Positions 3,589 to 33,624 of a stretch of DNA of 36,702 nt are shown here, piece by piece; the stretch's first letter is position 1; each line of letters begins with the position of its first letter. The stretch lies in IMG/VR virus record IMGVR_UViG_3300045988_119983; one strand, given 5' to 3'. Source of the stretch: a virus. The notes under the pieces are model-generated. The model had not been told where the DNA came from. It made no database searches and worked only from the letters and a program-made list of their open reading frames with translations. A program made the translations under genes and the position numbers.

Positions 3589-3893
3589 CCCAGATCCTCC
3601 TCTGTGAGCTGTTCGCCCGGCCTCGTGTACCAGGCTGTGAAGTCCTCCGGGATGCGGTTCGACAGACGCATACTGCCCGGGCGTGCGACGATCATGTCCC
3701 CCTCAAGCGCCCAGATCGTGTAGGTGTGCTCGACGAGCATCACCCGCCCGTCCGGCGTGAAGCCGCACCGCTTGCGCGCGCGGCGCGCGATCGCCTCCGC
3801 GTTCTCACGAGTCAGCCGGACCGCGCGGACGAGCGCGCGCTCCTGAAACTCCTTGACACCGGGGATGTCCTTCAGTGGGTCGATGGCGGTCAT
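3585..3893 (-). CDS. Hypothetical protein (102 aa)
   Basis: ORF with ATGA overlaps at both ends. Confidence 0.6.
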   Translation of the reverse strand: MTAIDPLKDIPGVKEFQERALVRAVRLTRENAEAIARRARKRCGFTPDGRVMLVEHTYTIWALEGDMIVARPGSMRLSNRIPEDFTAWYTRPGEQLTEEDLG

Positions 3894-5102
3894 GCTGCCT
3901 CCTTAAGGGCGATCTTGGTGAGCTGGTAGATAGCTGCGGCGCCCTGCTGCGGGACGACCCCATTTCCGAGGAGTCGGAGCTGCTGCTCGCGTGTCAGGCC
4001 GAGATCCGCGCCTGTCACATGCCCTTCCGGTAGCCCCATGAGCCACTCGACAAACTTCGTTGAGAGGCGTGCTCGCCCCCCCCTCGCGAGTCGGTGGGAC
4101 AGTCGGCGCCGGAGCCTCACGTCCGAGCACCTGCTCCCAGCGCGCGATCGCTGGCGCGTACATTCCGAAATCGGTGTACTCAATCCGCGTCGCCAGGTGT
4201 GTACTCTTTTCCGGCGGTCGTCCGCTCGTCCGAGGGAGGCCCATCACCGCATCTCCTGCCTTCGGAGTCGGCAGCAGCTCGCGCGCCACTTCGTGCAAGT
4301 TCGCGCCGTACCCGGTCGAGGAGGCCGTTGCGTTCGTTGCCTGCGGCGTCGGCAGCATCTGCACCGCCTGAGACAGACTCATGCCCGTCCCCTCCTGGTG
4401 CCTCCCCGCCTTATGGTCCGACGCAGTCGGCGTCGGGATCAGGGCACCAGATGCTCGATCTGGTCTGCCAGGCTCACCGAGTGCCCCCCGGCCCGCCGCT
4501 TCTCCGGCTCCTGCGATCCCCCGCAGCTGCCAAGGTTCGCCTGCGGGGTGGCTAGTAACAAAAAGTCGCTCTCGCTGATGAGGGGCGCCAACGTCGGAAG
4601 CTCTGACAACACACCATTGCGAGTCATACCCGAGGCCGGCCAGATCTCCGACCACACGGCCTGCTGCGCGGAGAAGAGATCCATCTGCTCCGTCTCCCAG
4701 CAGTCCCTGCTCTTGTTCCACCAGACTGAATGCTCCACTCGTCAAACTCCCTCGCACGTTTTCCCACACGACCAGACGCGGACGCAGTGTCTTGATCGCC
4801 TCGAACATCGACTCCCACAGGCCCGATCTCGTCCCCGAGGCCATGCCCGCGCGACGGCCCGCGAGGCTCAGATCCTGGCAGGGTGAGCCTCCGCAGATGA
4901 TGTCGACCGGTTCAACGTCCGACCAATCAACCTGCGTGATGTCGCCTAGATTCGGCACGCCAGGCCAGCGCACCTCAGCAAGCCGACATGGCCCCGGCTC
5001 GACGTCACTCGTCCACGCGACACGCGCCGACGGATCAAGGGCTATACGCACGGCCATATCAAGACCGCCGTATCCAGTAAAGAGACTGCCGATAGTTGTC
5101 AT
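3890..5102 (-). CDS. DNA (cytosine-5) methyltransferase, reading frame broken at a G8 tract
   Basis: Start MTTIGSLFTGYGGLD (motif I), GGSPCQDLS (IV), ENVRG (VI), GAPHQRERLF (VIII), three LPTPxA repeats. The C-terminal FVEWLMGLPEGHVT...GNGVVPQ (motif X) is in the +1 frame (track ORF 3890..4183). Confidence 0.85.
4076..4083. repeat. Homopolymer C8 (G8 on the coding strand) at the methyltransferase frame break
   Basis: gctcgCCCCCCCCtcgcg. Confidence 0.95.
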
Positions 5103-31250: not shown

Positions 31251-32060
31251 TTACGCCTTGTCCGCCATGCCGCTTTGCTTTGGGGTTTTCGGTTCTGCCC
31301 ACGTCAAAGTGGCGCCGTATTCCCCGTGTGCCTCGACTCGGATTAGCTTCCGGTAGTCGGGCGTTCTGCCTCCTCGGTCGGCTTCTCCGAGCCGGTCGGC
31401 AGCGATCTTGTGGACCTGCTCCAGGCGGTCCTCGTCGATGACCTGCTGGCCTGCCGCCTCGGGCGGTAGCGGCTGCACGTCGCAGTCGCATCCCGGATGG
31501 ATCGGGAGCAGATCTTCCTTGTAGTAGCGCTGCGTCGATGCGACGACGCAGAGGCCGCAGTTCTCGCGGCCCGTGAGCACGCGCCGGTAATACGAGCCCG
31601 TGTCCGGGTAGGCGCGCATCACTTGTCGGGATGCGTGTACCTTCGCGAGCTGAGCGTCGCCGCCGATCAGCTGAGTCAAACGCAGGCGCCCCTCAGAGAC
31701 CGCCTGCTCGACAGGCTTCCCGTCAGACAGTGCCTTGTACACGTCGACCGCAGGGCGGCGGTACACCGTCCGGGGATCGACGCCGCGAGCGCCGAGAATA
31801 TCCGCCTTGTCGAGGGGCGGGACGACGAGCTTCCAGCCGAGCTCGTGGGCGCAGCGTGCGAGGTAGGCGCGGGTCAGGTCCGCGATGCGGAGCTGACCGG
31901 CGGTGACCCTGGGGATGATCGCGTCGATCATCTCCTCGACGGCGCTCGCCCTGTAGTTCGGCATGGAGTCCCAGTAGGCCTCGCCGAACTTCGTGATCTG
32001 TGTGCGCACGGCGTGGACCTGGGTACTGTAGACACTCGTGAGGTCGTCCAGGTCCGTCAT
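31251..32060 (-). CDS. MuF-like head morphogenesis or minor capsid protein
   Basis: Start MTDLDD (SD GAGGAG, 8 nt upstream). LTGRENCGLCVVAS...PIHPGCDCDVQP. Confidence 0.7.
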   Translation of the reverse strand: MTDLDDLTSVYSTQVHAVRTQITKFGEAYWDSMPNYRASAVEEMIDAIIPRVTAGQLRIADLTRAYLARCAHELGWKLVVPPLDKADILGARGVDPRTVYRRPAVDVYKALSDGKPVEQAVSEGRLRLTQLIGGDAQLAKVHASRQVMRAYPDTGSYYRRVLTGRENCGLCVVASTQRYYKEDLLPIHPGCDCDVQPLPPEAAGQQVIDEDRLEQVHKIAADRLGEADRGGRTPDYRKLIRVEAHGEYGATLTWAEPKTPKQSGMADKA

Positions 32061-32062
32061 GC

Positions 32063-32236
32063 TCACTTCTCCTCAAGGTCGGCTGACTGCGTCTCAGGCA
32101 GACGCAGAGCGACGGGCACTGCGCCTGTGAACTTGATTCCGTCGAGGCCGACGACCTGAGCCGCTGACTGCGGGGCAACGCCCGCGCGGATCGCGGTACC
32201 GAGCGCGTCGAACTTTGTTTTCAGTTCAGACGGATC
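32063..32236 (-). CDS. Portal C-terminal extension in the -1 frame (57 codons, no start codon)
   Basis: DPSELKTKFDALGTAIRAGVAPQSAAQVVGLDGIKFTGAVPVALRLPETQSADLEEK*. High GC3. Fills an otherwise empty 155-bp gap and ends 2 nt before the next ATG. Confidence 0.6.
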   Translation of the reverse strand, partial: DPSELKTKFDALGTAIRAGVAPQSAAQVVGLDGIKFTGAVPVALRLPETQSADLEEK

Positions 32237-33624
32237 CCCCCCGTGACCGGAGGCTGCGCCTCATCGGTCGGCTGGGGGTTGTCCTGCAACGCGAACGCGA
32301 GAGCAAGCTGCTCTTCTGCGCGGCGCTGCTTGTCCTGTGCGATCTGTTCCGGCGAGTAGCCGAGAATGTTCCGCTGGATCGTCTCCAACGCCTCGCCCGC
32401 GTTGCGGGCCTGCACGGCTGCGGCGTACTTCTCCGTGAGGGAGACCGCGTGAGGCGGTACGAATAGCACCTCGACGGTTTCTGTCTCGTCAAGGTCGATG
32501 CCCTCGACCGCGAGCGCGCGAACCATGAGGTAGGCCAGTGCCGGCTTGAATCGCTCGATCCGGTCCTCAGCCTTGGACAAGAGTGCCTTCTGCGGCTGCT
32601 CGGCGCCCGAGGCTGACTGGTTCGCCGAGTCGGGCAGCATGATCGACAGCGGGGTCGAGGTCTCAACCGCGAGCTCGCGCCAGTCGTCCTTCGTGGCGTT
32701 GAGAATCTCGGTGATCTGAGTCTGCGAGGACTCCCAGATTTCGACTCCGGGAGGCAGCTCCCAGAGGGCGGCGGGCGACGGCTCGAACACCTTCTGGTAG
32801 TCGATCTCGTTCCCGGCCTCGTCCTCAGCTGGCAGGCCCGCCGACCCTTCGGCGCTCTTGAGCGCACGCTGGCGGAAAGCCTGCATCGAGATAATGACGA
32901 GACGCTGCAGCGTCTGCCAGTTGATGCGGTCGATCAGGTCGAGGACGTTCTCGAACTCACCCTCACCGAACCTGTTCTCCAGAACGACGACGGGCGGTGC
33001 GCCCTCGAACGCTTGCTCGCCGGCCTCGTCCTGCCGCCAGCCGGACGAGACAGTCGAGATCAGGGCCTTCGAGTCGCTGTAGGCAGAGCGAGAGAACGCC
33101 GTGCGCTTCCCCGGGGTCCACATCACCAGATGATCGATGCCCGCCGCGGAGTCGCGCCAGACCTTCACAGCCGCGAGCGCACGCCAGGGCCGGACCGGAT
33201 CCGGCTCCACGTACATGTGCTCAGGCCGTTCGTAGGTCACGCAGGCGTGCCCGTCCTCGTCTTGTGTGACGAGGAGGTAGCCGCGTCCGAGTGTCGCGGC
33301 GTCCCAGATCGCGTCGGAGAAAGCGACCTTGAGGCGGTTGTCTCGCCAGATCCTGGCTGCTGCCAGCGCTGCCGGCGTCTTGTCGCTCGCTCCGACGGTC
33401 ACGCCGTTCGGGATGAGGCGGTCAACGAGCGCGGCGACGACGAGCTTTCCGGGGCTCGTGCGCGCGCGTCGCTGGAACTTGATCCAGGCTTTCGCCAGGT
33501 TCGGCCCCATCTCCGGTAGGGGACTGGTGCCGTTGGTGTAGGAGCGCAGCAGGTCTGTCCTGGTGCGCTCCTTGTCCATCTTTGCGGTGAGGTAGGAGAG
33601 CCACTCCTCGGGGGTCTTGGTCAT
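32221..33624 (-). CDS. Portal protein (annotated frame stops 4 codons after a G7 tract)
   Basis: 467 aa, downstream of terL. Confidence 0.85.
   Translation of the reverse strand: MTKTPEEWLSYLTAKMDKERTRTDLLRSYTNGTSPLPEMGPNLAKAWIKFQRRARTSPGKLVVAALVDRLIPNGVTVGASDKTPAALAAARIWRDNRLKVAFSDAIWDAATLGRGYLLVTQDEDGHACVTYERPEHMYVEPDPVRPWRALAAVKVWRDSAAGIDHLVMWTPGKRTAFSRSAYSDSKALISTVSSGWRQDEAGEQAFEGAPPVVVLENRFGEGEFENVLDLIDRINWQTLQRLVIISMQAFRQRALKSAEGSAGLPAEDEAGNEIDYQKVFEPSPAALWELPPGVEIWESSQTQITEILNATKDDWRELAVETSTPLSIMLPDSANQSASGAEQPQKALLSKAEDRIERFKPALAYLMVRALAVEGIDLDETETVEVLFVPPHAVSLTEKYAAAVQARNAGEALETIQRNILGYSPEQIAQDKQRRAEEQLALAFALQDNPQPTDEAQPPVTGGIRLN

Follow-up and report, generated by a model that had tools for sequence, protein, structure and literature searches.

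Probable phase variation of an accessory C-terminal portal module at a poly-G repeat in an Xhp1-like phage

The window analysed here is a 36,702-nt stretch of viral DNA (IMG/VR record IMGVR_UViG_3300045988_119983), and our subject is the 3' end of its portal gene, which stops four codons past a run of seven G residues and is followed, in the -1 frame, by a conserved tail of 57 codons. We consider it probable that slippage of this repeat in DNA (phase variation) toggles the tail as an accessory C-terminal module of the portal, and that the run is not a translational recoding signal. We favor this explanation because the related phage Xhp1 carries eight G residues and has the tail in frame, and because the run is hypervariable among relatives while the portal body has no insertions or deletions within the closest clade. 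The G7 of the window would then be one length allele of a hypermutable poly-G repeat, located in a disordered linker of the portal of a temperate phage that resembles Xhp1 and belongs to oral Schaalia/Actinomyces. When the DNA is replicated, slipped-strand mispairing would add or remove G residues, presumably at a high and reversible rate; G8 would yield a fused portal of ~520 aa (the ON state, as in Xhp1), and G7 a 467-aa portal with the module left untranslated (the OFF state, as in the window). The run may drift in the prophage state, with selection acting on the module in ON phases, for example during virion production or transmission, and the module itself may be a docking peptide inside the capsid at the portal crown.

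The portal gene and its out-of-frame tail

The genes discussed here are all encoded on the minus strand. The portal gene (467 aa; 32221-33624) was taken from the list of open reading frames (ORFs) and matches the family PF05133 (SPP1_portal) over residues 49-414, with E = 1.9e-20 and 73.7 bits against a cut-off of 25.5. By this family profile, by the portal fold described below and by its gene position between terminase and head-morphogenesis genes, it is a portal of the SPP1 gp6 type. The portal frame ends in CCG GTC ACG GGG GGG ATC CGT CTG AAC TGA, or PPVTGG IRLN*. The simple-sequence repeat within it, G7 at 32236-32242 (C7 on the plus strand), is the putative frame switch: in the context of the window, runs of 5, 8 or 11 G residues place the tail in frame with the portal, 7 or 10 place it in the -1 frame, and 6 or 9 in the +1 frame. 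It is housed in a Pro/Gly-rich, flexible linker between the portal crown helix and the tail (32236-32280, approximately residues 449-463, NPQPTDEAQPPVTGG). The last G opens the -1 frame, which begins GAT CCG TCT GAA CTG AAA and encodes DPSELKTKFDALGTAIRAGVAPQSAAQVVGLDGIKFTGAVPVALRLPETQSADLEEK*, a conserved C-terminal module of 57 codons at 32066-32236 that runs from DPSELKTKFDALGTAIRAGV to FTGAVPVALRLPETQSADLEEK. Its stop codon (32063-32065) lies 2 nt before the ATG of the next gene, and the GAGGAG Shine-Dalgarno sequence of that gene (32069-32074) falls within the last tail codons. The TGA that ends the 467-aa portal (32221-32223) overlaps a Leu codon of the tail as C-TGA; in other lineages, the same stop position forms an ATGA or GTGA stop/start overlap.

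An earlier account made from the letters alone (the sequence-only reading) had described a portal stop four codons past G7, a stop-free -1 extension of 57 codons, and a tail that ends 2 nt before the next ATG and contains the Shine-Dalgarno sequence of the next gene, all of which is borne out by the minus strand. The untranslated gap that would exist without the tail, given there as 155 bp, measures 160 nt. The same account held that the tail has no start of its own, and indeed no ATG, GTG or TTG occurs near its beginning, the only such codon being an internal GTG 17 codons from its end; likewise, the third-position GC content described as high is 0.70, but this is below the 0.85 of the portal. 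Finally, G_GGG_GGG was said to satisfy the X_XXY_YYZ rule for slippery sites. It does so formally, in the phase ACG GGG GGG, but the efficient classes of such heptamers have A or U at Y. G7 heptamers are not over-represented in the window, where two tracts give three matches against 7.5 +/- 3.5 in dinucleotide-preserving shuffles. The heptamer alone is no more than expected by chance; the conserved ORF behind it is beyond chance.

A megablast search returned one phage record, Actinomyces phage Xhp1 (MG941013), with 95.8% nucleotide identity over 2.5 kb. Around the run, the sole length difference between the window and Xhp1 is one G (G7 versus G8), and the Xhp1 portal is, both as annotated and as translated, a single fused protein of 522 aa (...PPVTGGDPSELKTKFDALG...LEEKRA*). 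Xhp1 resides in Schaalia odontolytica XH001 as an inducible prophage, and its particles lyse or lysogenise cured hosts (PMC13578794). Because Xhp1 is infectious with G8, the fused form of the portal is functional. All three isolate-derived sequences of the clade have the tail in frame, namely Xhp1 (G8), Actinomyces sp. HMSC035G02 (G8) and Schaalia sp. ORNL0103 (G9-A-G). An alignment to portals of related phages, proposed in the sequence-only reading as a check, gave the same arrangement at greater distance: in prophages of Nocardia, Arthrobacter and Klugiella, whose portals share 44-50% identity, the tail motif (xLKxKFDALGvAIRAGVdP..AA..LGL.G..FTGAvPVsLR.PE..A..LEek) is fused in frame.

To compare the junction among relatives, we collected 80 related IMG/VR loci and anchored each by tblastn matches to the portal end and the tail. 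This census replaced an initial one based on regular expressions, which was dropped because differing flanks hid most loci. A full tail was present in 56 loci, the window and Xhp1 among them. The tail is free of stop codons in its own frame in all 56, and both other frames contain stops in all 56. Variable sites in the tail fall overwhelmingly at third codon positions (11, 7 and 50 at positions 1, 2 and 3), and the ratio of nonsynonymous to synonymous polymorphism (pN/pS) is 0.135 overall, 0.123 for in-frame loci and 0.140 for out-of-frame loci, as compared with 2.8 and 4.1 when the same DNA is read in the other two frames. In the closest clade (n = 20; portals 92-96% identical to that of the window at the nucleotide level), the ratio is 0.039 for the tail and 0.056 for the portal body. 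The segment downstream of the run stays intact whatever the run length, as at a contingency locus, where a change is reversible in principle. These patterns argue that the tail is a real protein module under selection as strong as that on the portal body, whatever its frame.

They also bear on the explanation that the tail is a decaying pseudogene remnant that is being lost after a frameshift. Tail-less lineages do exist, one of them with an internal deletion after loss of frame, and the tail is absent from most of the wider portal family, as such decay would have it. A remnant would hardly maintain pN/pS at 0.04-0.14 where pS ranges from 0.18 to 0.38, nor keep 56 of 56 tails open while the other frames are always stopped, nor conserve the motif in other genera down to the portal identities given above. 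We rejected this explanation on the pN/pS values and the codon-position pattern, and regard it as scarcely credible.

A phmmer search with the tail against 1.84 billion representative sequences gave 100 matches at E <= 1e-3. Complete tail matches always form the C-terminal end of a protein, whether a portal of ~460-610 aa, a short ORF or a fragment. For a structural view, we used an AlphaFold (AF2) model of P0001, a fused homolog that is 99% identical, with a mean predicted local distance difference test score (pLDDT) of 80.8. The body of the model has a portal fold; its best Foldseek matches are the portals of the mycobacteriophages Douge and Bxb1, of 80alpha and of SPP1, with E values down to 8e-19. 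Residues 449-464 have a pLDDT of ~45 and no secondary structure, consistent with a disordered linker, and the length and sequence of this linker vary across homologs. The tail is modeled as two helices followed by an extended, highly conserved stretch of low confidence that, in the model, looks like a docking peptide. The tail had no match in Pfam, and a profile search of the PDB gave only chance matches resembling leucine-rich repeats (E >= 0.04); a phmmer search of the PDB with the fused portal gave no match, and the modeled tail offers no fold for comparison.

Run length and frame among relatives

Run length across the 56 tail-bearing loci varies between G4 and G10, apart from a single aberrant G17, and the tail is in frame with the portal in 14 loci, in the +1 frame in 20 and in the -1 frame in 22. 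In an independent recount that used the tail as its sole anchor, 13 loci were ON and 44 were OFF. Alignment of the 1382-nt portal body across the closest clade is gap-free, whereas the run is G6 in two loci, G7 in three, G8 in frame in two, a CC-G8 variant in two, G9 in eight and G10 in three, leaving the tail out of frame in 18 of 20. The portal run takes six lengths, the most frequent of which (G9 in this clade) is out of frame. Length polymorphism among close relatives is restricted to the repeat, as is typical of contingency loci. The sequence-only reading had allowed that the true sequence might be G8, with the tract either misread or phase-variable; the phase-variable form agrees with the fused G8 portal of Xhp1 and with a hypervariable run beside a gap-free body, and the misreading form is weighed below. 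Short runs of G4-G5 were ON in six of six loci in the first census and in five of six in the recount. It seems that a short in-frame run, or an interrupted run with a lost tail, are stable end states. The aberrant locus (L034, ~2860-2900) has G8, C8 and G17 at a junction near the contig end; this is probably an assembly artifact and was given no weight.

The scatter of frames is difficult to reconcile with a programmed -1 ribosomal frameshift on G_GGG_GGG, by which one mRNA would give portals of 467 aa and 520 aa in a fixed ratio, as the sequence-only reading had proposed for its two isoforms. The heptamer is correctly phased, the -1 frame stays open almost as far as the next gene, ending 2 nt short of it, the out-of-frame tail is under selection, and the -1 configuration is shared by 22 of the 56 relatives; moreover, indel mutants of herpesvirus thymidine kinase (TK) are rescued by low-level frameshifting on G runs (PMC5009743). 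However, neither the site nor its phase is conserved: 20 loci have the tail in the +1 frame, out of reach of a -1 shift, and a further 14 have it in frame. We looked for a stimulatory RNA downstream and found none: the 96 nt past the run fold at -36.3 kcal/mol, compared with -34.3 +/- 3.4 for shuffled sequences (z = -0.58), and no Rfam family matches at E <= 1. In E. coli, an organism outside the Actinomycetota, no G_GG.G_GG.N heptamer figures among the efficient motifs, and the lowest of the measured values, 0.018%, belongs to G_GG.G_GG.U (PMC4066793). Tetranucleotide repeats occupy the homologous junctions in other lineages, and the zero-frame product by itself suffices in a tail-less sister lineage. 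Programmed frameshifting is, on this evidence, very unlikely.

This sister lineage comprises five contigs (L017, L025, L028, L031 and L081) whose portals end in TGGIRLT*, a truncation like that in the window, and whose portal bodies are 92-93% identical to it in nucleotides and 97-99% in protein. At each locus (~2880-2930), the run is interrupted, as GGGTGGG or GGCTGGG, and ~138 nt of the tail have been deleted internally, leaving the remnant DPSDLK|DLEEK. Pairwise, these portals differ by 39-67 nt but by only 4-12 aa, and the next gene is intact. These comparisons indicate that a truncated portal has persisted under purifying selection, so that the short form works. The tail is also absent from the L048-type and L059-type clades and from most of the wider portal family. 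Because this sister lineage, other clades and most of the family do without it, we consider the tail an accessory module.

A second poly-G run in the window served as a control for the quality of the assemblies. A gene for a C5-cytosine DNA methyltransferase (~3890-5100, minus strand) has a G8 run at 4076-4083; the frame that precedes it reads ...PPTREGG, and the conserved C-terminus (KFVEWLMGLPEGHV...LGNGVVPQQ) lies in another frame, which G7 would restore. Of 66 loci among the relatives, 56 preserve the methylase frame, mostly through G7 and once through an in-frame G10; G8 is out of frame in seven loci, including the window, and Xhp1 has the in-frame G7. The claim of the sequence-only reading that poly-G slippage recurs in this genome thus holds for the methylase, whose frame is broken by G8 in the window and mostly intact, through G7, in relatives and Xhp1. 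These loci come largely from the data sets that supplied the portal loci, and since 56 of the 66 retain the methylase frame, the assemblies do not scramble G runs at random. The comparison argues that selection keeps the methylase in frame and that assemblies usually read its G7 correctly; the phage methylase may also be phase-variable. The listing of two coding sequences for the Xhp1 methylase in GenBank (MG941013, 30122-31005) suggested a frameshift there as well, a candidate that we rejected on finding one intact ORF with in-frame G7. The Xhp1 methylase reads uninterrupted from MTTIGSLFTGYGG to ...EEAA*, and the two-part listing looks like an annotation artifact.

With this control, a sequencing or assembly error, in which the real genome has G8 and the contig has lost one G, appears unlikely. 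In favor of an error, the run is a homopolymer, its length in the nearest isolate is G8, the three isolate-derived relatives are in frame, and the methylase run (G8 against the usual G7) is a second one-base homopolymer discrepancy on the same contig. However, the two discrepancies in the window are opposite in direction (-1 and +1), and the portal run spans G4-G10 over many independent data sets, with an out-of-frame mode at G9 in the closest clade, which is not the +/-1 scatter around G8 that read errors would give; the methylase run of the same assemblies meanwhile keeps its frame as described. The exact 467-aa product is present on at least eight public contigs, though a sample may be common to these, and is recorded in ENA ERZ28658769 (sample SAMEA2738061). 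In addition, isolate genomes of other genera show such a split at tetranucleotide repeats, and these are not a typical source of read error.

Recurrence in other actinobacterial prophages

Small ORFs consisting of the tail alone were found in other lineages, and in five of five that were looked up a repeat occurs at or just upstream of the portal/tail junction. The repeats that split these portals, which have other sequences than that of the window, are C7 (L161, L162), C8 (L164), G8 (L165) and (AGCC)x7 (L163). As an unbiased sample, we collected 41 tail-encoding loci from GTDB representative genomes, scored a locus as fused when the portal ORF reached at least 430 aa, and sought a repeat in the preceding 120 nt; one locus (L205) was left unscored for its short upstream sequence. 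Three of the 24 fused loci had a repeat, as compared with 13 of the 16 split loci, where it lies exactly at the junction (odds ratio 30, Fisher p = 3e-5). Homopolymers of at least 6 are enriched 14-fold in the 90 nt about the junction, and five tetranucleotide repeats occur in these intervals versus none in the remaining 163 kb. In a replication on 20 further viral contigs, 11 were fused without a repeat, one was fused with G9 (L285), and eight were split, all eight with a repeat; the latter include L286 (G8), the sister of L285. A second sister pair differing in its run is L174 (C8) and L175 (C6).

Split loci with G/C runs of 6-9 include Bifidobacterium cuniculi LMG 10738, Propionibacteriaceae bacterium P6A17, Gulosibacter macacae and others, and further such loci come from a Tessaracoccus metagenome-assembled genome (MAG) and from two related MAGs labeled Arcanobacterium and Actinomycetaceae, with C8 and C6 where C7 would be in frame. 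Other loci are split at tetranucleotides: (GCCA)x8, (CAGC)x6 in Glutamicibacter creatinolyticus JCM 10102, (CAGC)x12 in Microbacterium sp. A20, (CCAG)x8 in Leucobacter ruminantium and (CCAG)x4 in L. chironomi. The tail of M. oxydans is one residue off that of Microbacterium sp. A20, yet it is fused to its portal via a non-repetitive linker. Because a tetranucleotide repeat can underlie the split, read error, ribosomal -1 shifting and RNA-polymerase slippage are excluded as a common cause, and comparison of the loci argues that slipped-strand change in DNA is the common factor of the split junctions.

Six of the loci (L163, L177, L184, L195, L201 and L202; junction at ~1950-2000) have perfect (AGCC), (CAGC), (GCCA) or (CCAG) repeats of 4-12 units in the portal linker. 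The repeats encode QPAS and are out of frame with the tail in all six, which are Microbacterium, Leucobacter and Glutamicibacter prophages and related contigs.

In another set of loci, the tail start overlaps the portal stop, with a G run at Shine-Dalgarno distance: L172/L274 (G8, 7 nt, ATGA), L173 (G9, 8 nt, ATG), L190 (GTGA) and L164 (GTGA), as well as L199 (ATGA), which has no repeat. In these lineages, the sequence plausibly points to a tail that is a separate, translationally coupled ORF of ~50-60 aa, and the tail module may work either fused or free. A separate tail gene with its own start was rejected for the window and its Xhp1-like relatives, where none of ATG, GTG and TTG stands at the beginning and the codon is always CTG.

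Such overlaps are among the reasons to ask if the tail is still made from OFF alleles, either through RNA-polymerase slippage or through termination-reinitiation to give a free peptide of ~52 aa, with run length being near neutral. The frames are near random or even OFF-biased, with 18 of 20 loci of the closest clade out of frame (p = 0.03); the tail matches the body in its low pN/pS; and the ON state of the short, stable G4-G5 runs would also fit. The ATGA and GTGA overlaps stand at the first conserved hydrophobic codon of the tail (L172, L190, L164, L199); in the window, the stop overlaps this codon as CTGA, and the G run, 11 nt upstream, might mimic a Shine-Dalgarno sequence. Transcriptional slippage is conceivable on G9-G10. 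Within the clade of the window, however, this codon is always CTG, a very poor initiator, and no canonical start is available. Transcriptional slippage is best documented on A/T runs of at least 9, for which the G6/G7 runs of 20 of the 56 loci are short. Neither route fits tetranucleotide loci that lack an in-frame start, such as L195, and the tail is dispensable in the tail-less lineage. We therefore regard expression from OFF alleles as improbable, if not negligibly so.

Background on mismatch repair is consistent with slippage of the repeat in DNA. To our knowledge, Actinomycetota in general lack MutS/MutL, and the same would presumably apply to Schaalia. The mismatch repair of mycobacteria by NucS does not correct indels (PMC7015689). 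By analogy, such a gap, if it extends to Schaalia, could help slippage. GGG and CCC codons are expected to be non-preferred in high-GC genomes. Their use here, together with the recurrence of the junction with different repeat types, hints at an adaptive switch more than at a tolerated liability of a low-complexity linker.

Some findings weigh against phase variation of the portal or sit uneasily with it. All three isolate-derived sequences of the clade are in frame, as compared with ~75% of metagenomic contigs out of frame, a contrast that leaves room for assembly error or for strong selection of the ON state in virions. The window has a second homopolymer frameshift, in the methylase, as an error-prone assembly would give. 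The OFF state is over-represented in the closest clade, where only two of 20 loci are in frame (p = 0.03). Finally, tail pN/pS is low though most genomes are OFF, which would also fit tail expression from OFF alleles; fast switching, or tail production from such alleles, could reconcile the strong constraint with three-quarters of the loci being OFF.

Known systems, and the meaning of a portal switch

Contingency loci with tetranucleotide or homopolymer repeats are well known from Haemophilus, Neisseria and Campylobacter, and reversible homopolymer frameshifts occur in glpK of Mycobacterium tuberculosis. The portal junction shares with these an in-gene repeat, slipped-strand ON/OFF change and a downstream ORF preserved by selection, and related prophages have units of the (CAGC)n type. 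The bacterial loci, however, concern cellular surface, restriction-modification or metabolic genes, whereas the gene in question here is an assembly gene of a temperate phage, in which OFF removes the tail domain only.

Among phages, the closest likeness is to the poly-G tracts of Campylobacter Fletchervirus (Sorensen et al. 2021, Cell Rep 35:109214, as cited in PMC11032452 and PMC12633550), which, in the account given there, are runs of 7-11 G residues in phage structural genes, with slippage, frame switching and mixed populations. As represented in that account, the Fletchervirus tracts lie in receptor-binding proteins and have a shown benefit against a phase-variable host receptor. In the window, by contrast, the gene is that of the internal core portal, only an accessory C-terminal module is affected, the host is a high-GC Gram-positive, and the case is known from sequence alone. 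Contingency loci of T2/T4 and other coliphages (Gomez, Barrick and Waters, 2025 preprint; PMC12633550) are similar in having homopolymers of at least 6 in phage ORFs, reversible frameshifts and a heterogeneity that is read as bet-hedging. They differ in being A/T-rich, in belonging to lytic phages and in having measured rates and defense-evasion phenotypes, and the preprint mentions neither portal genes nor tetranucleotide repeats; here, the same junction has gained different kinds of repeat in the portals of several actinobacterial lineages. A poly-G tract in the methylase of Bordetella phage BPP-1 is noted in passing in the same work (PMC12633550), and resembles the methylase run of the window (4076-4083; G7 versus G8 or longer among relatives), though enzyme family and host differ.

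Translational systems offer more formal parallels. The tail chaperone G/GT of lambda, insertion sequence (IS) elements and dnaX share with the window an X_XXY_YYZ heptamer near the end of an ORF and a -1 extension, but they have a conserved site and phase, an A/U-rich A-site triplet and usually a stimulator, none of which is present here (PMC4066793, PMC5009743). In herpes simplex TK, an indel in a G7 run may leave a trickle of full-length product, but those mutants are drug-selected in a eukaryotic virus, whereas the polymorphism described here is natural, widespread and bidirectional (PMC5009743).

Portals are regarded as fixed core parts of tailed-phage particles. In the literature that we searched, we found no report that connects portal genes to frameshifting or to phase variation driven by repeats, and the Xhp1-related papers that we consulted mention neither portal, frameshift nor phage poly-G. 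If true, a repeat-driven switch acting on a conserved portal domain would add a new site to those known for viral phase variation, one that recurs in prophages of Schaalia/Actinomyces, Bifidobacterium, Microbacterium, Leucobacter, Glutamicibacter, Gulosibacter, Tessaracoccus and others. It would also point to an uncharacterised role of the ~55-aa module, with its consensus FDALGvAIRAGV...FTGAVPVSLRxPE. A wider idea, which we put forward tentatively and consider possible but doubtful, is that temperate phages of Actinomycetota repeatedly evolved a homopolymer or (CAGC)n contingency switch in front of this conserved module, such that virions with or without it (or with it fused versus free) would represent bet-hedging in a core assembly protein; the module might dock a MuF/VG15-like cargo or affect the packaged DNA end. 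Xhp1 and its host S. odontolytica XH001 offer a tractable, recently characterised system in which a switch could be tested directly. At a practical level, gene callers split such portals or call spurious small ORFs, and annotation pipelines and frameshift predictors should score such junctions as repeat alleles and not as programmed frameshifts or pseudogenes.

In the window, an ORF of 556 aa resembling a terminase lies upstream of the portal, and downstream follow a gene of 269 aa, then a scaffold-like gene and the gene for the major capsid protein; Xhp1 has the same order. The 269-aa gene (31251-32060, minus strand; ATG at 32058-32060) has a weak VG15 match and occupies the slot that a VG15-family gene holds in related loci, where the neighbors in L164 and L165 have PF25310. 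In L165 (GCA_046939275.1, 2186-3604), the gene after the portal and tail joins VG15 and Gln_amidase domains. Its domain content recalls MuF-type capsid cargo proteins that bear an enzymatic or toxin domain, a likeness of relevance to the docking idea.

Two further observations concern runs outside the junction. Klugiella xanthotipulae (L178, ~3097) has a C10 run in a downstream head-morphogenesis gene, 1.1 kb past the tail, and its portal/tail junction is free of repeats. A T6-T7 run recurs ~+1650 to +1780 nt from the start of the tail in many prophages of different genera (among L166-L206), and may represent either a conserved terminator or a feature of coding sequence.

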